This document shows, in pieces, positions 2,179-63,142 of a stretch of DNA of 64,000 nucleotides. The notes under the pieces are model-generated. The model had not been told where the DNA came from, ran no database searches, and saw only the letters and a list, made by a program, of their open reading frames with translations. Position 1 is the stretch's first letter; each line of letters opens with the position of its first letter. The DNA comes from an uncultured beta proteobacterium. GTDB lineage: Bacteria > Pseudomonadota > Gammaproteobacteria > Burkholderiales > SG8-39. The stretch is taken from positions 74,472 through 138,471 of the forward strand of contig CAIOLO010000019.1 in NCBI GenBank assembly GCA_903859155.1. The letters run 5' to 3'. The position numbers and the translations under genes were made by a program.

Positions 2179-3609
2179 ATGGCGTTCAAGGATTTGCGGG
2201 ACTTTGTCGCGCGGCTGGAAAAAGAAGGCGAACTGAAAACATTCAAGGAGGAAGTGGACTGGAACCTGGAAGCAGGTGCCATTACGCGCCGCGCCCTTGA
2301 GACCGGATTGCCGGCGCCGTTTTTCGAAAAGGTCACCGGCTATCCGCAGGGCTACCGGCTGACAAGCTCGGTGCTTGCCAACGTCAAGCGCATTGCGATC
2401 GCGATGGACATGAACGTGGAAACGCCGATGCGGGAACTCATCGAAGAGTATCTGCGCCGCCAGAAAAAGCCGATCAAGCCCGTGACGGTCAAGACCGGTG
2501 CGTGCAAGGAAAACATTCTTCTTGGCGACAAGGCCGACCTGCTGAAGTTTCCGGTGCCATTCATCCATGACGGCGACGGCGGCCGGTATCTGGGCACCTG
2601 GCACCTGACTGTCACCAAGGACCTGGACAGCGACTGGCAGAACTGGGGCATGTATCGCCACATGCTGCACGACAGCCACTCCTTCGGCGTGCTCGCGCCT
2701 TCACCGAAGCACCTGGGCATCATGGCCGACCAGAAGTACGGCGCCAAGAACATCGGCATGCCGGTGGCCGTGGTCATCGGTACCGAGCCGATCTGCACCT
2801 TCTGCGCCGCTACGCCGCTTCCCTACGGCGTCTCGGAGGTGGACGTGGCCGGCGGACTGCGCGGCCAACCGGTGGAGATGGTGAAGTGCGAAACCAGCGA
2901 CCTGATGGTGCCCGCCCATGCGGAGATAGTTGTCGAAGGCGAAATCATGCCCGGTGACAGCAAGGACGAGGGGCCCTTTGGCGAGTACACCGGCTATCGC
3001 TCCGGCGCGGCCAGCCCCAAACCGGTCATCCGCGTCAAGGCGATCACCCACCGCAACAACCCGATTTTCACTTTCTCCTGCCCCGGGGTTCCGCTGGACG
3101 ATTCGGCGTCGGTGTTCTCGGTCAACAAGAGCGCCCAGTTCCTCGACGAGCTGCGCTCCAAGGGCCTGCCGGTCACCGGAGCCTACCTGATCGTCGAAGG
3201 CGCGAGCCATGCGATCGCCGTGTCGGTGAAGAACGCCTACTACGGCATCGCCGGAGAAATTGCGCACGTCATCTGGAGCGCGCGCCACGGGCTTCTGACC
3301 CCGAGCGTGATCGTGGTGGAAGACGACGTCGATCCGTGCAACCTGCAGCAGGTGTTCCACGCGCTGATGACCAAGTGCCACCCCGGGCGCGGCATCAACA
3401 AGATCGATCATGCCACCGCCTGGCCGCTGATTCCCTGGCTGAGCGAGTACGAGCGCGAGCATCGCATCGGCGCACGCGTGTATTACGACTGCACCTGGCC
3501 GGTGGAATGGCCCCTCGCGGACCGGCCGGTACGCCAGTCATTCAGCGAGTGCTATTCGAAGGAAGTGCAGGAGAAGGCGCTGGCGAAGTGGCGCGCGCAG
3601 GGTTATTGA
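2179..3609 (+). CDS. UbiD-family (prFMN-dependent) decarboxylase, copy 1
   Basis: 476 aa. N-terminus 'FKDLRDFVARLEKEGEL', 'NWGMYR' Arg motif and 'EGPFGEYTGY' acid-base motif. Confidence 0.85.
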   Translation: MAFKDLRDFVARLEKEGELKTFKEEVDWNLEAGAITRRALETGLPAPFFEKVTGYPQGYRLTSSVLANVKRIAIAMDMNVETPMRELIEEYLRRQKKPIKPVTVKTGACKENILLGDKADLLKFPVPFIHDGDGGRYLGTWHLTVTKDLDSDWQNWGMYRHMLHDSHSFGVLAPSPKHLGIMADQKYGAKNIGMPVAVVIGTEPICTFCAATPLPYGVSEVDVAGGLRGQPVEMVKCETSDLMVPAHAEIVVEGEIMPGDSKDEGPFGEYTGYRSGAASPKPVIRVKAITHRNNPIFTFSCPGVPLDDSASVFSVNKSAQFLDELRSKGLPVTGAYLIVEGASHAIAVSVKNAYYGIAGEIAHVIWSARHGLLTPSVIVVEDDVDPCNLQQVFHALMTKCHPGRGINKIDHATAWPLIPWLSEYEREHRIGARVYYDCTWPVEWPLADRPVRQSFSECYSKEVQEKALAKWRAQGY

Positions 3610-6654: not shown

Positions 6655-8909
6655 ACGGTGGCTTCCTCATCCTTGACCTTGTAGACCTTGCACAACATCG
6701 TCTTGGTGGCCGCGCCGCCGAAGCCGGAAGTGCTCTGTTCGCCCATTGGGATGAGCTGGTTCACGTTGAGATCCCATACGCCGTAGAAATTGGGCGAGGT
6801 GCCGTCAGTCTCCGGCAGCCACCAGCCATGCAGGGCGTGGATCATCTGGCGGTGCATGGTCGGTGTGAGCCTGGCGCGGCGCTTGACCTTGCCGCGCACG
6901 CCTTCAATCCACACCATGTCGCCGTCCTTGATGCCCAGTGGCGCGGCGGTCTCGGGATGCATTTCCATTTCCGGAAAAGGCGACAGTTCGCGCAGCCAGG
7001 GAATCTGCCGGTGCTCGCTGTGGAAGAACGCGCTGTTGCGCCGGCCCGTGATCATGATCAGAGGGTATTTCTCCCAAATCTCGGGTGTGCTCAGCGGACT
7101 CTCGATGGGTTCGCGGTGATAGGGCAGCGGATCCAGGCCGTACTTCTCGTAGTTGGTGCAGTACAACTCGACCTTGCCGGTGTTGGTTCTGAAGCCGGGC
7201 TGGCCGTCGGGCCGCAACTGCCCCTTCTCATGGCGGCGGTATGGCACGGTGCCGGACTTGTGGTTCTTCGGCGCCATCGTCCAGGACTGCTCGGCAAGCT
7301 GCTCGAAAGTGAGACCCGTAGCCTTGAGCCGGAGTGTCATCAGCTCGCGCACGTTGGCCCAGGGGACGGCTTGGGGATTAAGGCGCTTGGCCAGTTCGAA
7401 GTTGATTTCCCAGTCGGAGCGGCACTCGCCGACTTGAATGACTTTCTGGATCGCGTTGATCGGCACGCCGGTGGTGAACACCGAATCCTTCTCCGGGAAA
7501 CTGCCCGCCGGAAGGATGATGTCGGCAATTGCCTGCGCCGTTGGCGTCATGAAGGTGTCGACCACCACGTTGAACTCGAGCTTGCGCACCGCTTCGTAGT
7601 GGCGCTTGGGGTCCTGGGCTGTGTTGGCGAGAAAATTGTTCGTCTGGCACCACAGGCCCTTGATCGGGTAAGGCTTCTGCGTTTCCATCTGCTCGAGCAC
7701 CATGTCCGAGAGGGCCCAGGCACGGAAGTTCTTGACCAGCGGAAAGCGGTCCGCGCCGATGCGTTTCTTGGTGAGGTTGGCAACGAACTCCTCGCCGTAG
7801 AGATCGATAACCTCCTGCGTCGAGTACGGGTAGATGGTGACCCCGAAAGGCGGGCGGGTGATGACGTTGCCGCCGGGGATGTCGATGTTGCCGGTAATGG
7901 CCCACAGGCAGTTGAGCGCGTGTATGGTGCTGGTCGCTTCGCGGTTGCTGTCAAGGGGCTGGCCGAAGCGCATCCCCGCCGGCTTGGCCGTGGCATACAT
8001 GCGCGCGGCCTTGACGATCTTTTCCGCCGGCACCCAGGTGATCGCGGCGGCCTTTTCCGGTGTGTATTCCTGCACGCGCTGCTTCAGTTCCTCGAAGCCG
8101 TGCGTCCACTTGGTGACGAACTCCTTGTCGTAGAGGTTCTCGTTGATGATGACGTTGAGCATGGCCAGCGCCAGCGCGCCGTCGGTGCCCGGGCGGATCT
8201 GCAGCCACAGCTCGGCGCGCGAGGCTTCCCAGGAGCACACCGGGTCGATGACGATGAGCTTGGTGCCGCGCTTCATCATGTCCACGGCCCAGTGGCCGGA
8301 GAAGTAATGGTCGGTGCAGCCGCTGCCCGCAAGATTGCGCGCCCAGGACACCAGCACCTCCGGTGCCTTCCATTCCGGATCGTCGTAGCGCTGCGGCGAG
8401 AACTGCGCGGCATCGGGGAAGGTGAAATCACCCATCACCATCGACATCGCCGCCAGGCGCGGCGTGAAACAGGAAATGCCCGACAGTCCGAACAGCGTCC
8501 AGTTCGGGCTGCCATAGGCATACGCCAGGAAAATGATGTAGCCGCCGGCGTCACGCCCGGTACCCTGCCCGAATACCATGGATTCAGGGCCGTATTTGTC
8601 GCGGATGGTGCGCATCTTGTCCTCGCAGGTATCGAGCGCCTCGTCCCAGGAGATGCGTGCCCACTTGCCTTCACCGCGCGCCCCGACCCGTTTCATCGGG
8701 TACTGCAGGCGATCCGGGTGATAGATGTACTGCGTGAGCGCCAGCGCTCGAGGGCACAAGCGTCCCTGCAAATAGGGATGATCCTCATCGCCCTCGCATT
8801 TGGTCAGCTTGCCATCCTTGATGGTCACTTTGACCCCGCAACCGCCGTGACAGCCCGGACCGGCGGACCAGGCCCCCATCCTGACAACGCGTTCGCCCAT
8901 TTCGCCCAT
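6651..8909 (-). CDS. Cytoplasmic molybdopterin (bis-MGD, DMSO reductase superfamily) enzyme, acetylene-hydratase-like
   Basis: The ORF runs to 9251, but ATG 8909 has the RBS GAGGGAGG 7 nt upstream and family homology starts there ('MGAWSAGPGCHGGCGVKV...LCPR' Fe-S domain). Other family features: 'LQYPMKRVG.RGEGKW.RISWDEAL', 'GTDGALALAMLNVIINENLYDKEFV', 'TPTAQ.ADIILP'. No twin-arginine signal. Confidence 0.8.
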   Translation of the reverse strand: MGEMGERVVRMGAWSAGPGCHGGCGVKVTIKDGKLTKCEGDEDHPYLQGRLCPRALALTQYIYHPDRLQYPMKRVGARGEGKWARISWDEALDTCEDKMRTIRDKYGPESMVFGQGTGRDAGGYIIFLAYAYGSPNWTLFGLSGISCFTPRLAAMSMVMGDFTFPDAAQFSPQRYDDPEWKAPEVLVSWARNLAGSGCTDHYFSGHWAVDMMKRGTKLIVIDPVCSWEASRAELWLQIRPGTDGALALAMLNVIINENLYDKEFVTKWTHGFEELKQRVQEYTPEKAAAITWVPAEKIVKAARMYATAKPAGMRFGQPLDSNREATSTIHALNCLWAITGNIDIPGGNVITRPPFGVTIYPYSTQEVIDLYGEEFVANLTKKRIGADRFPLVKNFRAWALSDMVLEQMETQKPYPIKGLWCQTNNFLANTAQDPKRHYEAVRKLEFNVVVDTFMTPTAQAIADIILPAGSFPEKDSVFTTGVPINAIQKVIQVGECRSDWEINFELAKRLNPQAVPWANVRELMTLRLKATGLTFEQLAEQSWTMAPKNHKSGTVPYRRHEKGQLRPDGQPGFRTNTGKVELYCTNYEKYGLDPLPYHREPIESPLSTPEIWEKYPLIMITGRRNSAFFHSEHRQIPWLRELSPFPEMEMHPETAAPLGIKDGDMVWIEGVRGKVKRRARLTPTMHRQMIHALHGWWLPETDGTSPNFYGVWDLNVNQLIPMGEQSTSGFGGAATKTMLCKVYKVKDEEATV

Positions 8910-8940
8910 AGCTTTGCCTCCCTCTGATATTGCCCTGCGG

Positions 8941-8960
8941 TTCGCCGCATCATCGGCGAA
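8941..8960. promoter_or_regulatory. Inverted repeat TTCGCCG-N6-CGGCGAA in a divergent intergenic region (candidate operator)
   Basis: Perfect 7-bp arms read directly. It lies about 30 bp upstream of the Mo-enzyme start codon, between divergent genes 8909(-) and 9060(+). Confidence 0.25.
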
Positions 8961-9059
8961 CAGGGGGCGGGCTACCTTGATCCATGTCAACGAAGCGGGA
9001 GGCGCCCGCGGCGCGGTGTGCGTACACTGTGGCGCTTGCCACAGGTGAGGACGAATACC

Positions 9060-9581
9060 ATGGGTGCAACCGGTCCCGGTGATGCATGGACTGTGCCCGC
9101 TCTGCGGGCCGAGATCGAGGCTTTTCTGGCCGCCTGGCACACGCTGGCGCTGGCCACCGTGGCCGAGGACGGCAGCGCGCATGCCGCGTCGCTGCTCTAT
9201 GCGCCGGATGGTTTGGGCCTGGTCTGGACATCGGATCCGCGCAGCCGGCACTCGCAGTATCTCGATGCGCGTCCCCGGGTTACGGCAACCGTTGCGCCGG
9301 ATTACAGCGACTTCGCAGCGATTCGCGGCCTGCAGATGGCAGGTGAGGCCGTCCGCCTTAGCGGCCCCATGGAAATGGCGCGCGCCGGTGCGTTGCTGAC
9401 GACACGCTATCTGTTTCTTGCGAAGCTCTCAGGCGCACCCGCGGTATTGCGCGCAGCCTGGGACAAGGCGAGCTTTTACCGTTTCAAGCCATCGCGCATC
9501 ACGCTGATCGACAATACCCGCGGGTTCGGGCACAAGGCGACTTTGCTGGTCGCCGCCGACGGTACCCTGGCCCTGGGGTAA
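9060..9581 (+). CDS. Pyridoxamine 5'-phosphate oxidase-family FMN-binding split-barrel protein
   Basis: ORF 9018..9581; ATG 9060 preferred. The pattern 'LATVAEDGSAHAASLLYA....LVWTSDPRSRHSQ' is typical of PNPOx-like small flavoproteins. Confidence 0.5.
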   Translation: MGATGPGDAWTVPALRAEIEAFLAAWHTLALATVAEDGSAHAASLLYAPDGLGLVWTSDPRSRHSQYLDARPRVTATVAPDYSDFAAIRGLQMAGEAVRLSGPMEMARAGALLTTRYLFLAKLSGAPAVLRAAWDKASFYRFKPSRITLIDNTRGFGHKATLLVAADGTLALG

Positions 9582-11044: not shown

Positions 11045-11908
11045 CTATGCCGCCTTCGCAGCTTTGGGTTCGAGCGCGATGGCACCCAGATGGCAGCTTT
11101 TTTTCAAAGCGAACTCCAGCGTTTTGCTGCTGAAACGCGGATCGCTCACCTCGATGCGGTAGCTGGCGCCGTCTGCATCCAGCCGGCGGAAACGGAAATC
11201 CCCGTAGGTGTCGCTCACCGTTTCGGCCAGCTTCTGCGTACCCTTCCACAGAACGATGTGAGCATCCGCGATGCATTCGATTGCCCCGTTGAGCATTCCT
11301 TCCAGTGTACCGCCGACGAAGGACTTGAAATAGCTGTCGAGGTTCTTGTAATACACGCGCGGCTTGTTGCCGAATTCGGGGTGAAGCACCTCGAGCTTCT
11401 CGTCGCGCACCATGCGCTGCATTTCCTCGTCTTCCAGATGCAATGTCTGGAAGGCATTGGTCGGACACACCTGCGAGGCGCGCGTCTGCGTCCACCCCTT
11501 GTCGAGCAGGTGCGCGTCGAACGGCCAGGTCTGCGGCAGCTGTTTTTCTTCGTTCCACCAGATCATGCCGTAGGGGCAGGACTTGACCAGTTCCGGGTGC
11601 CCCTTGGAGCGCACCGGGTCGAAAATCACGATGCCGTCGGCGCGCTTGCTGATCGCGCCCTCGGGTGCGCCCTTCATGCAGCTGGGTTCGTCGCAGTGGT
11701 TGCAGGTTACCGGCAGATAGGCCACCTCCACCATGGGATATTCGCCCTGTTCGCGCTGCCGGATCTCGATCCAGCGATGTCCCTGACGCGGCATCTCTTC
11801 GGCATAGCCGGGGAATGAATTGCCGCAGTACTCGTCGTGTACGGCGAGCGCGCAGTTGTTGCAGTTAAAGCACTTCGCTACGTCGATGAGCAGGTTCCAC
11901 TTTTTCAT
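11045..11908 (-). CDS. Pyrogallol hydroxytransferase/resorcinol hydroxylase-like small (beta, Fe-S) subunit, paralog 1
   Basis: True start is '[19 protein letters not shown]' at 11908, overlapping the alpha stop (ATGA). It has 'CNHCDEPSC', 'SCPYG' and a C-terminal carboxypeptidase-regulatory-like beta-sandwich ('YGDFRFRRL'). Only 8 canonical cluster cysteines are present. Confidence 0.8.
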
Positions 11909-14900
11909 GACGGCATCGCCTCCTTGGCTGCGGCTGCATTGGCCGCCACTTTTTCGCTGGTACCAGCGCGCGCGCCCAGGGCCGTCGAGCCGTCCCAGAG
12001 TTCCACCTCCACCAGGCAGGAATTGGGCGCCATCCCCAGCACCTTGCTGGCGATGGAGCGCTTGGGCGTGAGATTGTTGATGCAACCGCCGCGGTCGACC
12101 GAATTCCCCGGTTCGCCCAGAGGGTCGTACACCGCCGAGGAAGAGTAGGAGTGCGCCGTCCCTTGCCCCAGCCGGCTGGTTACATGCGCAGCGCACAGGA
12201 CCGCGCCGCGATCATTGTGCACTTTGACCAGGTCGTGGTGTTTGATGCCGCGCGCCCGGGCGTCCTGGGCGTTGATCCGCACCACCCAGTAGTAGTAGCC
12301 CTTCACCAGTACGCGGTGTTCGGCGATGTCGTTGGTCGAGCATTGCTTGCCGTCGGCGAAGGTGTGAAAACTGAAGCGCGAGTGCGGCGAGAGCAGTTGC
12401 AGCGGAAAACGCCCGAACAGCTCCTTGGTCTGCGGGCCTTCCCAGGACTGCAGGTATCTTACGATCGGCGGGCGCTCCGGATCGTTTGCATCGAAATGCT
12501 TGAGACTGGAGCACTCGAACTCGAACTTGCCGCTCTGGGTCTGCAGCCCCATCAGGAACTGCTTGCGGTAGTCGCCCGGCAGGGGAGAGGGCTCGGGCAC
12601 GTCCTTCTTGCGGCCCTCGTAGAACCAGCGCATCGCCACCGGGTCGCGCTTGCCCTCTTCGAGCGGCGGCACGACGTAATAGCCCTTTTTCAGGAACTCC
12701 TTCCACGAGATGACTTTGGGCAGATCGGAGGCGTCGAACACGCGCTTCACCCAGTCGAGCTCGTTCATGCCTTCGCAGAAATAAGTGCCCAGGCCCAGCC
12801 GGCTGCAGATCTCGGTGAAAATCCGGATGTCGGACTTCGATTCGCCCAGCGGCTCTATGCATTTGTGCTGCAGCATGATGACGCGGTGGTTCATCTGCGT
12901 CTGATAGTGCATCCCATAGCCGCCCGCGTGGGCCAGATCGCTGATGTCCCAGCGCTCGAACTGGGTGCAGGCGGGCAGCAGAACGTCGGCGAACTTCGCT
13001 TCGCCTTCGAACCAGATTGATTGATTTACGACGAACTCGAGCTTGTCGGTACGGTACATGTTCACGTAGCGGTTGGTCTCGGTCATGGTGCCGATGGACG
13101 CACCGCCGTACTTGTAGAGCATCTTGATGGGCGAATGGCCGGGCGCCGGATAGGAAAACTTCATGAACTGGCCTTCGATGGTGAAGCCGTTCCATGGATA
13201 GCCCTCGGCCTTGCCATCCATGATGGCCTCCGGAATGCGCAGGCGCGGCACTTTCTGCATCGAAGGGCCGTAGCTGGGCAGCTGCGGCATGCGCTGATAG
13301 AGGCTGACCGGGATGCCCGTGTTCTGGATGTCGCCCGACATACCGCCCTCGGCGTAGCCGGGGAAATAGAAGCGGATGTCGATAGGCCCGCCGTACTGCA
13401 GGTTGCCGTAGTTCACGCCGGGCTTGCCCATGCCCTGCATGCCCATGAGGCAGGCCAGCGCGCGAGCAAACTGGATGCCGTTGGCGGCGCGGCAGGCGCC
13501 GCCGTGCCCGTTGCCCGGGCCTCCGGCCGCGAGGTAGGTCTTTGTCTTGCCCCACTTGCGCGCAAGGGCTCGCACTTCCTTCGCCGGGACCCCCGTTTCC
13601 GCCTGTTGCCATTCAGGGGTTTTCGGCACACCGTCTTCCTTGCCCAGGACGTAGTCGCTCCAGACATCGAAGCCCACGCAGCGGTCGGCGACGAATTTCT
13701 TGTCGTACAGCCCCTCGGTCATCCAGACGTGCGCGATTGCCAGGGCGAGCGCGGTGTCGGTGCCGGGTTTGGGCGCCATCCATTTCCCGCCCAGCAGCGC
13801 CGCCGTGTGGTTGAAGTAGGGATCGATGTGCACCAGCTCGATGCCCAGGTCCTTGAGCCACTGCCTGCGGATGGTGGCCTCGAACCCGCCGTAAGCGCCA
13901 TTGGTGGCTTCCGGGTCGGACGACCAGAACACCATCATTTCGCATTCCTTCATGCAGTCTTCGATGGTGTTGTAGAACTCCACCTGCCCCAGGCGCATGC
14001 TGTAGCCGTAATGATGCGTGGCGCCCCAGTACCAGCCCTCCCAGCTGTCGGGGTTGTGCGCCACGCGCGAGGCGCCGATGGTGTTGAAGAACTTGTAGGC
14101 CGCGCTGATGTAGTAGCCGATGTTGCCCCACATGTGGTGCGAGCCGTGGTTGCCCAGGATGGCGCCCTGTCCATGCTCCGTCTTGACGCGGGTGATCTCG
14201 CCGGCGACGATGTCGAGGGCCTCTTCCCAGCTGATCCGCTCATACCCGGAGATGCCGCGATTCTGGGGGTTGCGTTCGCCTTTCGGATCGAAATCGACGC
14301 GTTTCATGGGGTAGAGCAGCCGGTCCGGCGAGTAGAGCGTCGATTTCACGCTGACGCCGTGGGGCGAAAGCGTGGTCTTGTGCGGAGGGGTGAAGCTCTT
14401 GCCGCGCGCCTTGATGGTCCACGCCGGGGCATCCTGGTCGGTGAATTCCATCGGTGTGGTGCGAATGACCTTGCCGTCCTTCACGTAGACGAACAAGGGG
14501 CCGCCATTGGTATTGGTGACATAGCGTTTGGTCCCGTCGCCCATGTCGATGCCGTACTCGACCTCCGGGTTCTGCATCAGCATCATGGTCTGGGTGAACC
14601 AGACGATCAGTTCGTCCGAGCCGTCGGCGCCGAACTGATAGTTCTTCATCGCCTCGATGCGCTCCAGTTGGTCCACCCAGGGCACGAACAGCCGCGCGCC
14701 GATCTTCGCCGAGGCGACGCTGATGGTGATGTCCGGTTTCGGGTGGAGGCCGCTCTCTGAGCTGACCCGCCCGTCATTGAAGGTGTAGTACCGGGCTATC
14801 GACTTATCCGCCGTCGCGATCTGGCAGGTGAAGTTCTTTTCCTTGAGCCTTTTTGCGAACTCGGGGAAGCGGCTCGCCTGGAAATTGAGCGCATGGGTCA

Positions 14901-14943
14901 TGCCGTACAGGATCACGGAAAACTTGGTGGCCGCGAGACTCAT
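11905..14943 (-). CDS. Pyrogallol hydroxytransferase/resorcinol hydroxylase-like large (alpha, Mo-bis-MGD) subunit, paralog 1, with an SCP2-like N-terminal extension
   Basis: ORF 11905..14958. ATG 14943 has the RBS AAGAGG. The core is colinear with paralogs 2 and 3 ('[34 protein letters not shown]', '[16 protein letters not shown]', 'VFWSSDPE'). The extra ~140 aa at the N-terminus is absent from paralog 3. Confidence 0.8.
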
Positions 14944-14994
14944 GGTCGCCTCTTTCATCTGGGTTGAGCATAGGTGAGGAACTGATGCGCGCGA

Positions 14995-16046: not shown

Positions 16047-17003
16047 TCAGTCTGGCTGTATGCCCGCTTCCTTGATCGACTGCGCCCAAACCTTGCGCTG
16101 CGCCGTGAGGAAGGCAGCGAATGCCTCTGGCGTTGAACCTTCGGCATGGAAGCCGGTGCGATCGGAACCTTCGCGCACCTCCGCGCGCTTCAGGATGACA
16201 TTGAGCTCGCGTGCCAGCCGGTCAATGATGGGCTTGGGCAATTGCGCCGGTCCGAACAAGCCCACAAACGAGGTGATCGAAGCAGGCGGTATCCCGGCTT
16301 CTGCCGCGGTGGGAATATCCGGGGCGAGTGAACTGCGCTGGTCGAGCATCACGGCAAGTCCTCTGAGTTTGCCTTCCTTGACCAGCGGAAGCGCGGCGCC
16401 GCTGGAAAAATTGGCATGCACGCGACCGGTCATGAGTTCGGTGAAGGTCTGCACTTCGCTCTTGAAGGGTATCTGCACCATGTTGATGCCCGCCCCCTTG
16501 TTCAGTGCCTCGGCCAGAACGATGCCGCTGATATTGGCGCCTGCATAGTTGATCTTGCCGGCGTTGGTGCGCGCATAGGCGACGAAATCAGCGGCTGTCT
16601 TGACCGGCAGGTCCGGCGCGACCACCAGGAACACCGGGAATTTGGCCAGCAGCATGATCGAGGTGAGATCTTTCGATGGCTCGTAGGGCGGATTCTTGCG
16701 CAGCAGCGGCGCCGAGAGCACGGCGGTCGGTGTAGACAGGAACAGGGTGAGGCCGTCGGGCGGGGATTTGATCACCACGTCGGCGCCGATTGCCCCGTCG
16801 GCCCCCGGGCGATTGTCGATGATCACCGGCTGGCCCAGTTCCCTGGCCAGCGGCGGCGCGATCACGCGCGCGAAGTTGTCGCTGGAGGAGCCGCCCGGGA
16901 ACGGAATCACCATGCGGATGGGCTTGCTCGGATACTGCGCGGCTGCGCCGGCTGATAGCGCAGCCGCGCATATGACGAGGACGGATCGGGTTATTGCAAG
17001 CAT
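16047..17003 (-). CDS. Bug/TctC-family substrate-binding protein (copy 2)
   Basis: 318 aa. Signal peptide followed by 'QYPSKPIRMVIPFPGGSSSD'. Confidence 0.85.
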   Translation of the reverse strand: MLAITRSVLVICAAALSAGAAAQYPSKPIRMVIPFPGGSSSDNFARVIAPPLARELGQPVIIDNRPGADGAIGADVVIKSPPDGLTLFLSTPTAVLSAPLLRKNPPYEPSKDLTSIMLLAKFPVFLVVAPDLPVKTAADFVAYARTNAGKINYAGANISGIVLAEALNKGAGINMVQIPFKSEVQTFTELMTGRVHANFSSGAALPLVKEGKLRGLAVMLDQRSSLAPDIPTAAEAGIPPASITSFVGLFGPAQLPKPIIDRLARELNVILKRAEVREGSDRTGFHAEGSTPEAFAAFLTAQRKVWAQSIKEAGIQPD

Positions 17004-17231: not shown

Positions 17232-17765
17232 TCACGCGGCCAGCACCGACTTCAGGATAGCCTCGAACGCGTCGTCGGCGAGCTTGCGCAGTTCCGCGTC
17301 GGTGCGGTCCTGGATCGGGGGCGGGATGAACACCACCGCCGGCTCGAAGGCGAGCGTTTTGCACTGTGCCACGGCACCGTCTCGGAATAGTTCCGTCACC
17401 ACGCCCACGCTCACCACGCCGCGCGCCTCCAGGTCTGTGATGTCGTGCATACAGCACGACGTGCAGGACCCTCAATCGGCCAGGCCTTCGACAACGATAT
17501 CGCACTCCGCGGCGATGGTCTGCTTCAGCTCGGTCGGGGCTTCCCAGGAGAAATGCGGCTTGGCGTAGCGCTTCACCTTGACGCCGCGCTCTGTGAATAA
17601 TTCGTCCAGCCGGTCGAGGAATATCTCCCCCGGATCTTTTCTGATGTCCATGATGCCCACCGTGAGCCCTTCGAGTGATTGCGGCCGCTGCAGACGGTCG
17701 CGGAATTCGCGGTGCAGTTCGCTCGTCGGGTCGACCAGTACCAGATCCTGAAGTTCTTCGTTCAT
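17232..17765 (-). CDS. UGSC-motif selenoprotein (Sec encoded by in-frame TGA at 17472-17474); function unknown
   Basis: ORFs 17472..17819 and 17232..17450 are in the same frame. Read-through gives '...IVVEGLAD-U-GSCTSCCMHD...'. A SECIS-like hairpin begins just downstream. ATG 17765 has the RBS GGAAGGA. Confidence 0.7.
17432..17470 (-). other. Bacterial SECIS-like stem-loop
   Basis: Upper stem GUCGUGC/GCACGAC (17460-17454 / 17448-17442) with loop UGUAU. Lower stem GGUC(C)UG/CAGACC. The upper stem starts exactly 11 nt after the UGA. Confidence 0.65.
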
Positions 17766-17797
17766 GCGGTGATTTCCTTCCACTTGATAGCCGAAAA

Positions 17798-19255
17798 CTA
17801 TGGTTTTATTTCTGCCCAATCCATGCCGATGTCCAGGCTCAACCCGGCGATGACAGCCGCCATCATTCCCGCCTCGCCGCCCGCGGCCACGATGTTCAGT
17901 CCATCGGGCAGGAACTTCGGGATGGTGAGCGTGGGGTCGTCGAGCCGCGCGCGCTGCTCGGGCGTGATGCGGCGCAGCCCCTCGTCGTCGTCGTTGTAAC
18001 CGGGCATCAGCTCGCGCACCGGAATCTGCAGCCGCTCGAGAATCGCCGCCTTGAGCCGCTGCTTCGACCAGCCCGCCTCGCGAAAGTGGACGGTGTGCTC
18101 AGGCGCGATCAGCAGCAGCGCGGTGGAGTAGGTGATCTTCGGGTGGTGCACTACCCGCAGGCACTGCGCGTAGGTCGCCACCAGGCCTTCGGGTGTGCGC
18201 GAGCGGTGATCGTGCAGGCCCTGCACGCCATTGCCGGTGAAGATGTGCACCACGTTCTGATCGGGTCGGAAGCCGCGCTCGACCGCGAGCGATTCCCACG
18301 GGCTGCCCAGTTCATCCTCGGCGAAGCACATGGTGTACTTGCCCTGGTGCCCGATGGTGCAGCGGTCGATGCCCCCGGGGCCCGGCCGGCCGCCGCCGAC
18401 GTTGCGGATGATCAGTTGCAGCGCGCGCCCGATGGATGCATTCGCCCGGTTGGCCTGGCCCAGCACATTGCGTCCGGAGTTCATGCCGATCGCCCGGCTG
18501 ATCGGGCCGCTCACCACGATCATCGGCGTCGCGAAGGAAGTCGTGCACAGCACCCCATGCATGCCGAATTTCGGACCGCAGGCCGTCTCGATAGCCGCCA
18601 GCACCACCGGAAAGTATTCGGGTTTGCAGCCGGCCATGACGGCATTGACCGCCGCTTTTTCCACCGTGCATGCGGCGCGGTCCGGCGGAACGATGGCAAT
18701 CACTTCGTCGGGCCTGCGGCGCGTGCCCTTCAACATGCGCAGCACCCGCGCCTCCGTCGGCGGGGTGACCGGCAGGCCATCGGTCCAGCCGCGATCGAAC
18801 ATCGCCTCCATGGGATCGACGTGGGCCGGCACGTGCACGCGGCGCGAGACGATGCCGGTGTCGCCAAAGCGCGCGGCCAGTTCCTCGGCCATGCCCGGCT
18901 CGATGTTGATCGCGCCGCAGCCCGGGCGGTTCTCCGGGAGCTTGTCGCCCAGGCCTTTGACGCCGGTGATCGCCTGCCATTCGCCACGGTTCCAGCCGAT
19001 CACACGTTCGACCTCGCGGCCCTGCTCGAAGCGGATCAGCGTGGGGACGATCTCGATTTTCTGCCGGTAGGAAAACGCAAGCCCGCGGTCGTCGATGACT
19101 CCGGGCACGCCTTCGGGAAAGGCGGGATCGTCCTGGGTGTACACCGACAGCGGCCCACCCTTATCCGTCAACTCGCGCAATATCGGTTGCACCAGTTCGC
19201 AGGTGGGGCAGTCGCGCTTGACGACGGCGACCAGTCCATTGACGATTTCATTCAT
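17798..19255 (-). CDS. Thioredoxin-fold (CPTC) domain fused to a ~380-aa domain of unknown function
   Basis: The ORF extends to 19876, but the true start 'MNEIVNGLVAVVKRDCPTCELVQPIL' at 19255 overlaps the stop of the upstream FAD gene (ATGA). I do not recognise the C-terminal part. Confidence 0.6.
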   Translation of the reverse strand: MNEIVNGLVAVVKRDCPTCELVQPILRELTDKGGPLSVYTQDDPAFPEGVPGVIDDRGLAFSYRQKIEIVPTLIRFEQGREVERVIGWNRGEWQAITGVKGLGDKLPENRPGCGAINIEPGMAEELAARFGDTGIVSRRVHVPAHVDPMEAMFDRGWTDGLPVTPPTEARVLRMLKGTRRRPDEVIAIVPPDRAACTVEKAAVNAVMAGCKPEYFPVVLAAIETACGPKFGMHGVLCTTSFATPMIVVSGPISRAIGMNSGRNVLGQANRANASIGRALQLIIRNVGGGRPGPGGIDRCTIGHQGKYTMCFAEDELGSPWESLAVERGFRPDQNVVHIFTGNGVQGLHDHRSRTPEGLVATYAQCLRVVHHPKITYSTALLLIAPEHTVHFREAGWSKQRLKAAILERLQIPVRELMPGYNDDDEGLRRITPEQRARLDDPTLTIPKFLPDGLNIVAAGGEAGMMAAVIAGLSLDIGMDWAEIKP

Positions 19256-20619
19256 GCGGGGTCCTTGACAAGTTCTTCTCTGCCCAGATAGGCGCCATCG
19301 GTTTCCAGTTGCCGCTGCAGCTTGTTCACCTCGATCCGGCGGGGCTGGACGCCCGACTGCAACGCAAGGTGTGCGGCGGTACCCGCGGCCTGTCCCATGA
19401 CGAAGCAGGGGCCCGAGACCCGCGCCGAAGCCTGGCCGTCGTGCGTCATCGAGGCGCAGCGGCCGGCGACAAACAGGTTGTCCACATTCCTGGGTACGAT
19501 CATCCGGTAGGGCAGATGGTTGAAGCCGCGTGATTCGGGGATCTTCGGGAACTTGATGACGACGGTGTCCGCCACATGCGCCTCCACCGGCCAGCCGTTG
19601 ACACCGATGCTGTCCTCGAAGCTGGCGCACTCGAGGATGTCCCGCTCCGAGAGCATGTAATCGCCGACCACGCGCCGCGTTTCGCGGATGCCCAGTTGCG
19701 GAGCGATCTCGACGATGTAGGAATTCTCGAATCCGGGGGCCATGCGGCGTACGAACTCGAACACCTCCATGCACTGGCGGCGCCCCTCGACCTCGCCGTA
19801 ACTCAATTGCTCCGCGTCGATGCCGCTGACAGCCGAACCGTCGGGGTTCTTGATAAGCGTGGCATTGGCGCTCCACTCCATGGGATTCATCTGCGGCCTG
19901 AAGATTGCGCCGCGGCGCGGGAAGCGGCGTCCCTGCCGTTCGGCCTCCTCCATCAGCCTGGGGATCTCCTCCCGGGCATTGCGGGCCCTGACCGGATCGA
20001 CGTTGTTGATGCGGATTTTTGCCGATGGATAGTAGCCGCTGCCGGCGCCATCGCCGACTTCAAAGGGCGCCCCGGCCCACGCGGCGAGATCGCCGTCGCC
20101 CGAGCAGTCGATGAACATCCGCCCGCGGATGGCGCCACGCCCGGATTTGCTCTCGACCAGCAGCGCATCGATGCTGCGATCGGCACCCATGCACACGCCC
20201 ACGCCGAAAGCGTGAAACAGCACCTTGACGCGCGTGGCCGCCATCAACTGGTCGGCTACGACCTTGTAGGCCGAGATGTCATACAGCTGCGCATTGATCT
20301 TGCCGCCCAGTGACAGGTGCGGGGGATTGAGGCCACCGAGGCGATCGAGCCGCGCGAGGATTTCGTCGGCCAGGCCGTGCACGACCTGTTTGATTTCTCC
20401 GTGAACATTGGCATGCAGTCCGCAGAAATTGGAAATGCTTGCCGCCGTGCCGCCGCCGCCCAGAAATCCGTAACGCTCGACCAGCACGGTGGAACGTCCG
20501 CTTTTGCCGGCGGCCGCGGCGGCCGCAATCCCGGCCGGCCCGCCGCCGAGGACTACAACGTCGAATTCCCCCAATACCGGTGTCTGCCGGCCGGGCTCCG
20601 CAATCGTGCTGTTGACCAT
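19252..20619 (-). CDS. FAD-dependent oxidoreductase (GIDA/FAD_oxidored-like)
   Basis: Start 'MVNSTIAE' at 20619 with a GGAGG RBS. Dinucleotide motif 'DVVVLGGGPAGIAAAAAA' and 'ERYGFLGG'. Confidence 0.7.
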   Translation of the reverse strand: MVNSTIAEPGRQTPVLGEFDVVVLGGGPAGIAAAAAAGKSGRSTVLVERYGFLGGGGTAASISNFCGLHANVHGEIKQVVHGLADEILARLDRLGGLNPPHLSLGGKINAQLYDISAYKVVADQLMAATRVKVLFHAFGVGVCMGADRSIDALLVESKSGRGAIRGRMFIDCSGDGDLAAWAGAPFEVGDGAGSGYYPSAKIRINNVDPVRARNAREEIPRLMEEAERQGRRFPRRGAIFRPQMNPMEWSANATLIKNPDGSAVSGIDAEQLSYGEVEGRRQCMEVFEFVRRMAPGFENSYIVEIAPQLGIRETRRVVGDYMLSERDILECASFEDSIGVNGWPVEAHVADTVVIKFPKIPESRGFNHLPYRMIVPRNVDNLFVAGRCASMTHDGQASARVSGPCFVMGQAAGTAAHLALQSGVQPRRIEVNKLQRQLETDGAYLGREELVKDPA

Positions 20620-20660
20620 GTTGATGCCTCCGAGTGGCTTGTCTTCAGGGGGAGGTGCGC

Positions 20661-21629
20661 CTAGTCGGCCGTGATTCCCGCGGCTTTCACGACCTTTGCC
20701 CATTTTTCGAGTTCTGTGCGGATGAAGGCATCGAATTGCTCCGGCGAATTGCCGACCGACTCCAGGCCCAGCTCGGCCATGCGTGATTTGACTTCAGGCG
20801 CCTGCACCGTGGCGACGAACGCCGCATTGATCCGGTTGACGATGGCGCGAGGCGTCGCACTGGGCACCACTGTGCCGTTGATGCTGAGCACGCTGAATCC
20901 GGGCAGGAGTTCGCCGACCGTCGGAATGTTCGGCGCAATCGCGGCGCGCTGCGGACTGGCTGTCGCAATGGCCTTGAGCTTGCCCGACTTGATATAGGCC
21001 ATGGCCGAGTGCAGCGGGTCTATCATGATTTGAACGCGCCCGGCCATGACGTCGGGGTATGCCGGTCCGCTTCCCTTGTAGGGGATGTGGACCATGTCGA
21101 TGCCGGTGTTGATCTTCAGCAACTCCCCGGTGAGGTGCATGGAACTGCCGGCCCCGGCTGTCGCGTAGCTCAATTTGCCCGGCATCTTTTTCGCCAGGGC
21201 GATCAGCTCGGCAAGCGTGTTTGCCTCCAGCGCGTGGTTCGCAGTGATCACCACGTGCGAAATCGTATTCATGGTGACGCCCGACAGATCCTTGACCGTG
21301 TCGAAAGGCATGTCCGGGCGCACGCTCGGGTTGATGACATGGGGCATCGCCACCTGACCAATGGTGTAACCGTCGGGTGCGGACTTGGCGACATAATTGG
21401 TGCCCACGACCATGCCGGCACCGGGCTTGTATTCGAGGACGACCGGTTGTCCCCAGATCTCCTGCAGCTTTTGCGCGAGCAGGCGCGCCATCACGTCGGA
21501 CCCGCCGCCGGGCGCATTGGCCACCACGAGAGTGACCCGTTTGTTGGGAAAATCCTGCGCGTGCCCGAGAGGCACGAGCACCGTGCCAAGTATCAGTGCA
21601 GCGCAGATTGCTTTGCCGGGACAGGTCAT
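20661..21629 (-). CDS. Bug/TctC-family substrate-binding protein (copy 3)
   Basis: 322 aa. Signal peptide followed by 'DFPNKRVTLVVANAPGGGSD'. Confidence 0.85.
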   Translation of the reverse strand: MTCPGKAICAALILGTVLVPLGHAQDFPNKRVTLVVANAPGGGSDVMARLLAQKLQEIWGQPVVLEYKPGAGMVVGTNYVAKSAPDGYTIGQVAMPHVINPSVRPDMPFDTVKDLSGVTMNTISHVVITANHALEANTLAELIALAKKMPGKLSYATAGAGSSMHLTGELLKINTGIDMVHIPYKGSGPAYPDVMAGRVQIMIDPLHSAMAYIKSGKLKAIATASPQRAAIAPNIPTVGELLPGFSVLSINGTVVPSATPRAIVNRINAAFVATVQAPEVKSRMAELGLESVGNSPEQFDAFIRTELEKWAKVVKAAGITAD

Positions 21630-24285: not shown

Positions 24286-25839
24286 CGAGCTACATCGGAC
24301 GATCGATTCCGCGCGTCGAGGACCTGCGCTTTATCACCGGGCGCGGCTGCTACAGCGACGATGTGTTCCTCGAGGGCCAGGCGTACTGCGCTTTCGTGCG
24401 TTCGCCGCACGCGCACGCGCGCATCGCGGGGATCGAGATCGCGGCGGCGGCGGAATCCCCCGGCGTATTCGCGGTGCTCACCGGCGCGGACTCCACCGCG
24501 GACGGACTGCTCGGCATGGCGCACCTGCCCAATCCCGCTGACGCCCTCGATGTGTCGCTGCGTGCCTTCACCGCATCGCCAACTGTCAGATCGAGCCGCG
24601 CGCGGCTGTCGGCGATTAGGACAAGGCAAGCGGACTGCACACGCTGATCTCGGGCAGGCCAGGGCGCTTTTTTGCACAAGATGACGCTCGCACGCGTTTT
24701 CAGTGTCGAGATGGAAAAAGTGCGCGTGATCTGCCCCGATGTCGGCGGCGGTTTCGGGCCGCGCACCAACATGTATCCGGAGCAGGTGGTGGTGCTGTGG
24801 GCGGCCAAGAGGCTCGGCAGGCCGGTCAAATGGACCGGCGATCGCAGCGAAGCGTTCGTCTCGGACTATCAGGGACGCGACGGTGCGATGCGCACCGCGT
24901 TTGCGCTCGATAGCGAGGGCCGCATCCTTGCCTACGACATGCAATGGTTGGGCAATGTCGGCGCGCACACGGTGTCGTTTGTGACCATGTCCAACGGGCG
25001 TCGCATGCTGCCCACGGTGTATCACGTCCCGATGGCGCATTTCCAGGTGCAGGCGGTGTTCACCAACAGCGTGCCGACCGCACCGTACCGCGGCGCGGGC
25101 AGGCCCGAGGCCACGCACATGATCGAGCGCCTGCTCGACATGGCGGCTGCGCGCCTCAATATCGACAGGGTGGATATCCGCAGGCGCAATCTGGTGGGAT
25201 TGGACAGGCTGCCGTATCGCTCGGTGTCAGGGCTCTTGTACGACAGCGGTGATTTCGCCGGCTACGTGGAGAGCGCGCCTTGCGGGCACGCTGCTGGTGC
25301 AGGGATGCGGCGAAGTGATCGAGCAGGGTCGTGCGGCCGCGGGCGCACTGCTGGAGGTGGCCTCGGGCGATATCGTCTATGCAGAGGGTGTCTACCGCGT
25401 CAACGGCACCGATCGTTCTCTCGGGCTTTTCGAGGTGGCGCGCGCGCTGCAGGCGGGCAAACCCGGCGCAGGCTCTCGCCAGTCGCTCGCCGCCACCTGC
25501 GATTTCAAAGGCCGCACGCCCGCCTATCCGGCGGGCTGCGCGGTCTGCGAACTTGAAATCGATGCGCAGACCGGCCAGGTGCTCTCGGGTTCCTTCCTCG
25601 ATTACGGCATCAGCCGTGCCGACGACCTGCCTTCTTTGCGCGTCGAACACGCCGAACATCCCACCGCGGGCAATCCGCTGCGGATCAAGGGAGGCGGCGA
25701 AGGCGGCATCGTTCCCGCAACCGCAGCGGTGCTCAACGCCCTGTGCGACGCGCTAGTGCGGGCGCGGGTGAACGATCTTCCGATGCCCGCGACTGCGGCG
25801 GCGGTGTGGCAGAAGACGCGTGGGATCGACACTCCCTAG
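24282..25839 (+). pseudogene. Decayed xanthine dehydrogenase/CO dehydrogenase-family molybdopterin (CoxL-like) large subunit
   Basis: Three fragments lie in different frames: 24282..24647, 24672..25556 and 25249..25839. They carry the N-terminal ('IGRSIPRVEDLRFITGRG'), middle ('VGGGFGPR','APYRGAGRPEA') and C-terminal ('IKGGGEGGIVPATAAVLNAL') family motifs. About 520 codons remain where about 770 are expected. Confidence 0.8.
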
Positions 25840-42740: not shown

Positions 42741-43589
42741 TCAGGCTGGTTCGAGCCGGATTTCTCCCAGCCAGCGGCTGTTGCCCACTTCAATGTCCAG
42801 AACCTGTTCGCGGTAACCCGGCGCCGTTATTCTGATGCGCAGGTCGGTCGAACGCGGGATCAGGTCGTCGAAGCGGAAGTCGCCGAAGTCGTCGCTGGAG
42901 GCCTCGGCGACGCGCTCGGTGCCTCGCGTGAGGGTTACGCTGGCGCCGACCACACAGTCTTCGATGCCGTTCTTCGTGACGGTCAGTGTGCCGGCGACAA
43001 AGGCGCGCATGTAGCGGTAAAGGTTGCGCATGTGAACGCGGCTCTTGGTCATGCTGCCCGGTTCGATGTGTTCGAGTTTCTCGTCGGCAATGATGCGCTG
43101 CATTTCTTCGTCTTCGACTTTAAGCGAGCGCAGCGCGCCGGTCGGGCAGGACTGTACCGGGCGGGGTTCGGTCCAGCCCGCGTCGAGCAGATGCGAATCG
43201 AAGGTCCAGTGCTGCGGCAGCTGCAATTCCTCGTTCCAGTATGCCGCCCGGAAAGGGCAGGCTTCGACGATGGCCTTCTGGCCTTTGGCGCGCTCGGGAT
43301 GAAACTGCACCAGTCCGTCGGGGCGCTTGGTGATGGCGCCGTTCTTGGCCGCCTGCATGCAGGGCGCGTCGTCGCAGTGCTGGCAGCTGTGGAACAGGTT
43401 GGTCACGTCGACCGCTGGAAACTGGCCGCGCTCGCGCGCGCGGATCTGCACCCAGCCGGGGCCGTGGCGCGGCATTTCCGCGGTGTATCCGGCATGGGTA
43501 TTGCCGACGTATTCGTCCTTGACCGCCATCTCGCAGTTGCGGCAACCGGTGCACAGTGCGACATCGAAAATCAGGTTCCATTTTTTCAT
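42741..43589 (-). CDS. Pyrogallol hydroxytransferase/resorcinol hydroxylase-like small (beta) subunit, paralog 2
   Basis: 282 aa. 'MKKWNLIFDVALCTGCRNC', 'CQHCDDAPC', 'ACPFRA' and a C-terminal 'FGDFRFDDL' beta-sandwich. ATGA overlap with the alpha stop. Confidence 0.8.
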   Translation of the reverse strand: MKKWNLIFDVALCTGCRNCEMAVKDEYVGNTHAGYTAEMPRHGPGWVQIRARERGQFPAVDVTNLFHSCQHCDDAPCMQAAKNGAITKRPDGLVQFHPERAKGQKAIVEACPFRAAYWNEELQLPQHWTFDSHLLDAGWTEPRPVQSCPTGALRSLKVEDEEMQRIIADEKLEHIEPGSMTKSRVHMRNLYRYMRAFVAGTLTVTKNGIEDCVVGASVTLTRGTERVAEASSDDFGDFRFDDLIPRSTDLRIRITAPGYREQVLDIEVGNSRWLGEIRLEPA

Positions 43590-46500: not shown

Positions 46501-46600
46501 CGTACACGGCCAGTTGTGCGCGGTACTCGGGGTTGCGCCAGATGCCGAAGCGCATCAGCGCGTAAAGCCCGGTCAGCATGGTGCAGAATAATGCGTTCAC
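43586..46600 (-). CDS. Pyrogallol hydroxytransferase/resorcinol hydroxylase-like large (alpha) subunit, paralog 2, with an SCP2-like N-terminal extension
   Basis: 1004 aa (GTG 46600, GGAG RBS). Colinear with paralog 1, including the ~135-aa N-terminal extension ('GLHPNPDITLS...DGPDELVYHFTQAM'). Confidence 0.8.
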   Translation of the reverse strand: MNALFCTMLTGLYALMRFGIWRNPEYRAQLAVYDVIAQIRLIDSDSGRWFELRGGRVRSGAGLHPNPDITLSYETAKAAVKLMMPPIDWQAQVEAAKSFMLRVDGPDELVYHFTQAMLGTRRLGWTFGIPASNGERRYVSMTNGGPCFVYVKDGKVVRITPIDFDTTDAQPWTIEARGQSFTPPRKTTIAVHGLATKSMIYSPDRMLYPMKRVDFDPKGERHPENRGKSGYVRISWDEALDLVANEIKRVKSKHGPGGILFNHPSHHQWGNIGYWTSALYRFINAVGATRVNHNPDSWEGWYWGAMHHWGNSMRLGCAEPYGTVEDLLKEAEMVVFWSSDPEATSGIYAGYEGSLRRSWLKRLGIPTVHIEPYRNASASFMDGKWIAPRPGTDAALALAIAWVWIAEGLYDKSFVEKRTVGFDVWKDYINGVSDGVAKTPEWQFAETGVAAREVRALARAWGKKRTYLGAGGLGTGWGGACRGPTGVEWSRAMVCLTAMQGLGRPGVNFGNLQWGTPIDTSFYFPGYGEGGMSGDINFTASSISLYQRMPHFPSVNTHLQGVPRTKLPEAILEGHAEGYPRDSRSIEGQFFKIRYPAPAHSPVKMFYRYGGSNIGTMPDSKRYIDMYQSDKLEFVVNQSIWFEGEAKFADVILPACTNFERWDISEWSNVSGFMTNCQVQLNHRVITMQHKVIEPLGESKSDYTIFRELGHKLGLGVYFSEGMSELDWVQRMFLASDVSARMSWKEFLHKGYYVVPAPSERLRAKTAYRWFYEGRKKDLPEPHPLPSEYKENYLEGMQTPSGKFEFDCETLKRFDANDQERPPILKYRRSSESIETERASRYPLQMLTPHPRFTFHTQGDRKDSFLNDIADHRLLIDGHYYLIMRLHPSDAEKRGIEEGMLVRVFNELGSVICAARLTECARPGVVHGYESSATYEPLGEPGKSPDRGGMLNLITPKKSQFEKGDAMGNSNCLVEVEPWDGADDMHAKYLATKSAASAPRENRA

Positions 46601-63141: not shown

Positions 63142-63142
63142 C

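Follow-up and report, generated by a model that had tools for sequence, protein, structure and literature searches.

The stretch analysed here (the window) comprises 64,000 nucleotides of contig CAIOLO010000019.1 (assembly GCA_903859155.1, positions 74,472 to 138,471 of the forward strand) from an uncultured betaproteobacterium. At 17765..17232 its minus strand carries a gene of the UGSC family which, judging from comparison with its homologues, is very probably a genuine selenocysteine (Sec)-encoding gene with an in-frame UGA at codon 98. A sequence-only reading of the window had singled out two open reading frames (ORFs), 17472..17819 (115 amino acids, counted from a TTG) and 17232..17450 (72 amino acids), as the two halves of a single interrupted gene. 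Both are present in the mechanical ORF list and lie in the same frame, and on re-reading the coordinates proved exact: the ORFs are separated only by the TGA (17474-17472) and seven sense codons leading up to the ATG at 17450, and this TGA is the only stop in the frame between 17819 and the terminal TGA. The triplet stands in the context ...AAECDIVVEGLAD-TGA-GSCTSCCMHDITDLEARGVV..., with VVEGLAD encoded before it and G-S-C (GGG TCC TGC) after it. Because the TTG at 17819 falls within the upstream gene, which does not stop until 17800-17798, and because public gene calls use the ATG at 17765, we prefer this ATG, which is likely the start of the UGSC gene. The expectation that automatic gene callers would fragment the gene was right as to the split, which is seen in every public assembly carrying the gene as pieces of 97 and 72 amino acids, but the 115-residue version with a TTG start is not used. 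Similarly, the gene had been described as hidden; it is missed by standard gene callers, but its family has already been described and has curated models. The features of the locus are collected in Table 1.

Table 1. Coordinates of the UGSC locus and of other features of the window
Feature	Position	Strand	Remarks
Complete UGSC-family selenoprotein gene (predicted)	17232..17765	-	177 codons plus stop; Sec would be codon 98
UGSC start codon ATG (likely)	17765-17763	-	used by public gene calls (97-amino-acid fragment P0001)
In-frame UGA, proposed Sec codon (residue 98)	17472..17474	-	TGA column in homologues; Cys (TGC/TGT) in full-length ones
U-G-S-C redox motif (proposed), TGA GGG TCC TGC	17463..17474	-	G99, S100 and C101 invariant in alignments A1, A3 and A4
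Extended stem-loop including lower stem GGUC(C)UG/CAGACC	17432..17471	-	minimum-energy fold of the window
Apical hairpin, 7-bp stem GUCGUGC/GCACGAC, loop UGUAU	17442..17460	-	folds, frozen synonymous sites, compensatory changes
UGSC terminal stop TGA	17234-17232	-	
Partner gene, 485 amino acids, N-terminal thioredoxin domain and ~330-residue C-terminal domain	17798..19255	-	stop 32 nt before the UGSC ATG
CPTC motif of partner	19199-19210	-	
FAD (flavin adenine dinucleotide)-dependent oxidoreductase gene (PF12831)	19252..20703	-	stop overlaps partner start as ATGA (19252-19255)
TctC/Bug-family periplasmic solute-binding protein gene	16047..17003	-	downstream of UGSC
Second TctC/Bug gene	20661-21629		upstream of UGSC
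AhtL-type large and beta subunit pair	11905-14958 with ~11063-11908		
AhtL-type large and beta subunit pair	43586-46600 with 42741-43589		
AhtL-type large and beta subunit pair	60544-63141 with 63077-63979		

The read-through product, with Cys substituted for the stop, matched the Pfam model PF24696 ('UGSC family') with 115.3 bits against a cutoff of 25, and the match covers residues 10-173, running across the UGA. The homologues P0055, P0064 and P0084 reached 143-157 bits in the same family test with NF041046 (NCBIfam 'UGSC family (seleno)protein') and PF24696. The earliest reports of a UGSC-containing protein concern Hyphomonas neptunium (ABI76733.1) and ocean metagenomes from the Sargasso Sea (PMC1976440). 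In the Global Ocean Sampling (GOS) survey UGSC was among the most abundant selenoprotein families, with 255 Sec and 21 Cys forms, and it was the most used selenoprotein family in non-marine samples (PMC2398784); reviews of 2022 and 2026 (the latter PMC13188914) still list it as uncharacterised. The statement of the sequence-only reading that UGSC-motif (seleno)proteins are known from selenoproteome surveys is therefore borne out by both curated models and by the papers of Zhang and Gladyshev. By these matches the gene adds one more member to a known family and in itself will not surprise a specialist: it resembles the described UGSC proteins in its whole-length profile match, in the position of U-G-S-C in the same column, in its non-marine, environmental origin and in the excess of Sec over Cys forms, and we found no essential difference from them. 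Alignments A1 and A3 show no variation at residues D97, C/U98, G99, S100 and C101.

A genome collection supplied 80 loci, belonging to metagenome-assembled genomes (MAGs) of Betaproteobacteria, Acidimicrobiia, Myxococcota and other groups and to Pseudonocardia isolates; with the earlier loci these gave 93 homologous genes in the first 95 loci. All 93 carry TGA at the Sec column, followed by G-S/T-C. A paralogous subgroup with the motif VGD-U-GSCSAAS adds 12 more TGA genes, for a total of 105 from four phyla, and neither TAA nor TAG occupies the column in any of them. The frame beyond the TGA is open in the 87 genes with enough locus to judge, giving total lengths of 170-203 codons, and a TGA followed by another 70-80 open codons recurs in Betaproteobacteria, Acidimicrobiia, Pseudonocardia, Myxococcota and the paralogous group. 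The protein databases hold the same genes in pieces: all 32 close homologues are fragments of 97-109 amino acids ending at the same residue, the C-terminal piece is called separately as a protein of 71-74 amino acids in 20 clusters, and on the contigs both pieces are adjacent and in frame, each matching PF24696. UGSC genes are thus mis-called in essentially every public assembly examined, as 'hypothetical protein' entries of 93-109 and ~72 amino acids, so that later analyses see neither the real protein nor its redox centre.

A profile search also retrieved full-length, single-ORF homologues with Cys at the Sec column (P0055, P0057-P0064 and others); for some of these, from Citricoccus, Pseudoclavibacter and Microbacterium, NCBI uses the name 'UGSC family (seleno)protein'. 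Cys-type genes were verified in DNA for Pseudoclavibacter, two metagenome contigs and a Roseovarius plasmid. An alignment of homologues, proposed earlier as a check on the column, accordingly yields TGA or Cys, with the Cys of the full-length proteins aligned to the TGA. Homologues do not end at this position, since the frames of the TGA type are open and the Cys types are full-length.

The simplest alternative is that the TGA is a true stop, the gene being either a pseudogene or a real protein of 97 residues followed by an untranslated ORF. Gene callers report it in this way, and no Sec machinery lies within the 64-kb window. Conservation of the 72 downstream amino acids, another of the checks that had been proposed, was measured against the two nearest relatives. 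The part downstream of the TGA differs from L016 by 17 synonymous and 6 non-synonymous codon changes and from L012 by 25 and 10, respectively, a predominance of synonymous change that is weaker in the N-terminal part (14/12 for L016 and 28/21 for L012). These codon comparisons show that the 72 downstream codons are under purifying selection and, by that measure, are translated. Moreover, the downstream codons account for the match to the C-terminal half of PF24696, full-length homologues carry Cys at the Sec column, and it is improbable that over 100 orthologous and paralogous genes of different phyla would share one nonsense mutation. We therefore regard a true stop as extremely unlikely.

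A second alternative accepts translation of both ORFs and holds that the gene is split, polypeptides of 97 and 72 amino acids assembling after synthesis from separate starts, the second at ATG 17450, with the hairpin described below serving translational coupling or re-initiation. The window does have an ATG seven codons past the TGA, GTG takes its place in most homologues, and many assemblies list the 72-residue ORF as a gene. However, the codon concerned is TTG or GTG in the paralogues and CTG, which is no start codon, in L011. The intervening codons hold the invariant G-S-C and vary in the manner expected of a conserved protein: in the homologues all four Gly codons are used at position +1, and the Ser at +2 is encoded by AGC, TCG, AGT or TCC, hence by both AGY and TCN. 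On this comparative evidence constraint on the protein extends through the seven codons that precede the internal ATG, and a restart at ATG 17450 is therefore ruled out. Furthermore, the Cys-type homologues are single chains, and the 105 genes use TGA exclusively at the column, never TAA or TAG. We give the split gene very little credence.

Reading through the UGA as Sec would call for a bacterial Sec insertion sequence (SECIS), and the sequence-only reading had placed such a hairpin 11 nt downstream. This was exact: after the 11 nucleotides 17471-17461, GUCGUGC (17460-17454) and GCACGAC (17448-17442) form a perfect 7-bp stem closing the loop UGUAU (17453-17449). Counted from the U of the UGA, the loop U-G-U-A-U occupies nucleotides 22-26, with G at 23 and U at 24. 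The minimal SECIS of Escherichia coli fdhF is an upper stem-loop of nucleotides 15-31, 11 nt from the UGA, in which G23/U24 are essential (PMC8659212). The fdhF-type spacing and the G/U in the loop that had been claimed for the window are both there, the stem beginning at nucleotide 15 and the loop containing G23-U24, in a hairpin that is conserved with covariation. The two elements further share their location within the coding sequence right after the UGA and a lower stem able to include the UGA region, and they differ in that the UGSC stem has 7-8 uninterrupted pairs and a loop of 5 nt here and 3 nt in most relatives. The lower stem claimed to enclose the apical one fared less well: it is part of the minimum-energy fold, but its register is not conserved, the flanks of the homologues pairing in other registers, and we dropped it as a conserved element.

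Several observations weigh against Sec insertion at this UGA. The NF041046 score of the window protein, 122.2 bits, falls narrowly under the cutoff of 125. In the 64-kb window, a Pfam sweep of ~47 genes yielded no selA, selB or selD, and ARAGORN found no tRNA gene, selC included. E. coli SelB needs a bulged U17 in the fdhF element, and the UGSC hairpin lacks one, nucleotides 15-21 being paired. A search of the whole window against Rfam gave nothing at the gathering thresholds, and the hairpin region gave only a chance snoRNA match (E=2.9). The folding energy has a z score of -1.35 for 61 nt, with 16 of 200 shuffles as stable, and of -2.0 for 48 nt (8/200), so that energy alone hardly sets the hairpin apart from chance. 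As the folding energy is unimpressive, the case for the hairpin rests on comparative data.

Codon usage was counted at the hairpin in 80 distinct homologous sequences. Synonymous positions within it are all but frozen: Thr is ACG in 77/77, Ser TCG in 73/73, Cys TGC in 79/79, Ser AGT in 77/77, Val GTG in 74/74 and Asp GAC in 80/80, and only His varies, with 72 CAC and 5 CAT, the latter giving a G-U pair. The invariant AGT is a rare codon in these GC-rich genomes. In contrast, codon choice varies at equally conserved residues outside the hairpin: Asp-1 is GAT in 67 and GAC in 13 sequences, Asp+13 GAT in 43 and GAC in 30, and Glu-5 GAG in 45 and GAA in 34. The difference between frozen hairpin codons and mixed flanking codons therefore places the constraint at the RNA level.

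The sequence of the hairpin does change between lineages. In the window and in L012 and L016, which are nearest to it, only the loop departs from the majority hairpin, UGUAU as against AGUGU, and this subgroup has C-C-M after the motif in place of the C-S-V of other UGSC proteins, which accounts for the loop UGUAU where the others have (A)GUG(U). The paralogous subgroup and L111 have other stems, CGCGGCCA/UGGCUG.CG, CGCCGCCA/UGGCGG.CG and UCGAGCA/UGCUCGA, and the paralogue hairpin carries a bulged A on its 3' arm. All three hairpin types lie at an equal distance from the UGA with G23-U24 in each, the loop bases being A-G-U-G-U in the majority type and G-U-U or G-U-G in the paralogue types. In a covariation count over 24 sequences, 88% of cells were paired and three of eight pairs had changed on both sides: 24-36 (GC/GU/CG), 25-35 (UA/GC/AU) and 26-34 (GC/CG). 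None of 500 shuffles reached the observed pairing or covariation score, and sliding the 3' arm as a control lowered the pairing to 20-54%. The covariation reflects few independent events, in about three lineages, and backs the evidence from synonymous sites without replacing it. Taken together, these comparisons indicate that the hairpin is conserved beyond the needs of the protein sequence.

A third alternative dispenses with selenium: the UGA would be read as a standard amino acid (Trp, Cys or Gly), through near-cognate decoding or a reassigned code. Three database homologues do show such residues at the Sec column, W in P0053 and P0056 and R in P0054. These may stem from gene calling with TGA as Trp, from a TGG/CGA variant or from sequencing error, and calling with TGA as Trp may by itself account for the W entries. 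TGA also ends 30 of the 47 other called genes of the window, which speaks against a reassigned code. When the window was scanned for further places where coding signal continues in frame across a TGA, only ordinary same-frame consecutive genes came up, a weak negative given that its GC3 (G+C at third codon positions) threshold excluded the UGSC gene itself. Furthermore, a conserved, fdhF-spaced hairpin with a GU loop is a need of Sec insertion and not of a reassigned code. Lastly, two Acidimicrobiia-type MAG loci have a tRNA-SeC gene (anticodon tca; L026 229-324 and L030 253-348) on the upstream side of UGSC, at a distance of 2.7 kb, so that these two carriers, at least, have selC. Decoding as a standard amino acid is in our estimation very unlikely. 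Selenocysteine, as the sequence-only reading had proposed, is supported by the conservation of the TGA, its alignment with Cys, selection on the downstream codons and the constraint on the hairpin at the RNA level. By analogy with E. coli, SelB charged with Sec-tRNA(Sec) would bind the hairpin 11 nt past UGA-98, with its G/U at nucleotides 23-24, and UGA-98 would then be read as selenocysteine in place of a stop.

Two annotation matters arose in these loci. L030, L035 and L037 bear the label 'uncultured Bifidobacterium sp.', which is probably wrong, as their sequences group with Ilumatobacteraceae/Acidimicrobiia loci. An odd 83-nt 'tRNA-Ala(cgc)' reported by ARAGORN at L082 3453-3535 coincides in part with the UGSC coding match (3001-3504), at its 3' end, and is probably a false positive.

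The fold of the UGSC domain was approached through an AlphaFold2 (AF2) model of the Cys homologue P0055, which is 54% identical to the window protein, using an alignment of 21 full-length members. The model has a mean pLDDT (predicted local distance difference test) of 91.8 and a pTM (predicted template modelling score) of 0.85, and shows an alpha/beta domain of five parallel strands, built from five successive strand-helix units. Residues 95-98 of P0055, the C/U-G-S-C motif, lie between strand 3 (87-93) and the helix 96-111; a loop after a strand, or the first turn of a helix, is the usual place for a nucleophilic Sec or Cys. A Foldseek search of the PDB with this model returned only generic flavodoxin-like matches, with template modelling (TM) scores of ~0.4-0.5 (none above 0.51) and E ~3e-4, among them lumazine synthase, flavodoxins, receiver domains and the DHH domain of RecJ, and sequence searches of the PDB with UGSC profiles found nothing. 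The model suggests that the UGSC domain is flavodoxin-like. A thioredoxin-like fold had once been guessed for UGSC (PMC2398784) and is not borne out by this model, which is that of a homologue.

Directly upstream of the UGSC gene lies a gene for a larger protein, which we call the partner. It occupies this position in 93 of the 95 loci and by tblastn retains ~50% identity across phyla, and it matches no Pfam or NCBIfam family. An exhaustive search gave a family size of 5,721 cluster representatives at E<=1e-3, with 1,301 at E<=1e-30. The first ~100 residues form a thioredoxin domain: profile A5 matched PDB thioredoxins with E=1.4e-4, aligning CPTC with the CGPC active site, and the region of the conserved cis-Pro (vPTL) is shared as well. 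The partner differs from thioredoxins in being fused to a ~330-residue domain without known relatives, and its scores, about E=1e-4 even with a profile, are weak. The C-terminal domain carries the motifs RGWTDGLPVvPPT and TVEKvAiNAVMAGC, and the conserved cysteines of the partner are Cys113, Cys210, Cys226 and Cys310. Homologues of the C-terminal domain that lack the thioredoxin domain (343-373 amino acids, 35-41% identity) adjoin divergent UGSC genes in either order; they were found beside the TGA-type paralogue of L012, in two Cys-type pairs of Pseudoclavibacter endophyticus, on the L097/L098 contigs and on the Roseovarius plasmid.

L012 has, at 7598-9241 (minus strand) and 2.4 kb from its first module, a second, divergent TGA-type UGSC gene with a thioredoxin-less partner and a TctC gene of its own; the hairpin of this paralogue has another sequence at the same spacing. 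In Roseovarius sp. THAF8 (plasmid pTHAF8_b; L112 5671-6651), trxB, for thioredoxin-disulfide reductase, stands directly downstream of the Cys-type partner-UGSC pair, a single example that is consistent with a thioredoxin-dependent cycle.

The two proteins also occur as one chain. In the natural fusion P0269 (549 amino acids) a UGSC domain, scoring 133 bits on NF041046, is followed by a partner domain. A fusion of the Sec type lies on the conjugative IncP plasmid p2-T1 of Acidovorax sp. T1 (NZ_CP021650.1; L113 4923-6320, at about 69.1-70.5 kb), where the reading frame ...GSGD-TGA-GSCTSW... runs stop-free into the partner domain. The PLSDB gene table, from which pseudogenes are omitted, lists only its first 97 codons, as a 'hypothetical protein'. 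The GOS paper mentions a 'UGSC/Unknown_1 fusion' (PMC2398784), which these fusions probably represent. Gene order and fusions together show an obligatory linkage of the UGSC gene to the partner gene, with occasional fusion of the two.

To look for relatives of known function, we scanned the 21 full-length UGSC members against NCBIfam with permissive thresholds. Nine of the 21 matched TIGR01917, NF040795, TIGR01918, NF040794 or TIGR04483, all below threshold, with 12-24 bits against cutoffs of 65-800. The best match was to TIGR01917 (glycine reductase selenoprotein B; E=1.9e-5, residues 53-156 of P0084 against profile positions 301-397 of 431), followed by betaine GrdH (8e-5), 'selenoprotein B' TIGR01918 (2.9e-4), sarcosine GrdF (6.7e-4) and, over profile positions 131-187 of 238, the D-proline reductase PrdB model (2.6e-3). 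All of these matches span the region around the U/C-G-S-C motif. Glycine and proline reductases are dithiol- and thioredoxin-dependent. UGSC thus shares with GrdB, GrdF, GrdH and PrdB a U-x-x-C centre and a weak but repeated profile similarity over ~70-100 residues around the Sec, and it shares with GrdB/PrdB a second, larger subunit and a thioredoxin system alongside (a fused thioredoxin domain here, trxB in Roseovarius).

Because the U-x-x-C centre, the larger subunit, the thioredoxin system and the weak GrdB/PrdB similarity agree, we propose that UGSC and its partner might form a dithiol-dependent reductase pair. The large partner domain would bind the substrate, probably an organic acid imported via the flanking TctC systems, and the Sec of UGSC would perform redox or nucleophilic chemistry, by analogy with GrdB/PrdB. 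U98 and C101 would pass through a selenenyl-sulfide redox cycle, with the resolving Cys three residues on, and the thioredoxin domain of the partner would re-reduce the Se-S bond through its CPTC site. More broadly, the UGSC-partner pair could be a widespread two-subunit Sec/Cys reductase, evolutionarily related to PrdB/GrdB, that acts on an imported organic acid with electrons from the fused thioredoxin domain or a neighbouring trxB.

A number of results weigh against this functional proposal, which draws on analogy and gene context. The window UGSC protein itself has no match to the GrdB/PrdB models at E<=10, the Pfam model GRDB is matched by none of the scanned UGSC members, and searches of Pfam, NCBIfam and the PDB detected no similarity of the partner to PrdA/GrdE. 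In the same three collections the C-terminal ~330 residues of the partner match nothing, and its single-sequence AF2 model, with a pLDDT of 36, is unusable. UGSC scores far under the GrdB/PrdB family cutoffs and is smaller, with 177 amino acids as against 240-436. The hosts differ too: GrdB/PrdB belong to Stickland-fermenting Clostridia, whereas UGSC occurs in aerobic or facultative Proteobacteria and Actinomycetota. We accordingly advance the reductase model only tentatively, as possible but doubtful, and regard the wider proposal of a widespread PrdB/GrdB-related reductase as speculative in the same degree.

Few prokaryotic selenoproteins are as abundant as UGSC, which is an orphan in function. 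The pairing with the partner, the thioredoxin fusion, the flavodoxin-like model and the weak GrdB/PrdB similarity are leads that make this function experimentally approachable, and cultured carriers exist in Pseudonocardia spp., Hyphomonas, Roseovarius and Acidovorax. If the wider reductase reading were true, a function would be assigned to an orphan selenoprotein family that ranks with the most abundant ones of freshwater and soil metagenomes.

The surroundings of the module are catabolic. The ATGA overlap between the FAD-dependent oxidoreductase gene and the partner gene suggests that the two are translationally coupled in this lineage. Among the 95 loci this oxidoreductase is not conserved beside UGSC beyond close relatives, and its place in the module is uncertain. 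TctC genes flank the module also in L012, L016 and the Acidovorax plasmid, and UGSC neighbourhoods in general hold TctC, TRAP (tripartite ATP-independent periplasmic) and NMT1 binding proteins, coenzyme A (CoA) ligases and transferases, amidohydrolases, xanthine-dehydrogenase-type enzymes and FAD oxidoreductases.

The window as a whole is a catabolic island, with 11 TctC/Bug solute-binding genes, 4 UbiD-family decarboxylases, CoA ligases and transferases and a TRAP transporter. It further contains 5 molybdopterin oxidoreductases, 3 of which are pyrogallol-hydroxytransferase-like (AhtL-type) large subunits, each followed by a Fer4_11 beta subunit; the beta-subunit gene at 10.9-11.9 kb, suspected at first of being broken, is intact. 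On the plus strand, 24286-25556 holds the remnant of a xanthine-dehydrogenase/CO-dehydrogenase-type large subunit, in which an N-terminal Ald_Xan_dh_C-like piece and a MoCoBD_1 piece are split by stops and the 3' end is degraded, and which is probably a pseudogene.

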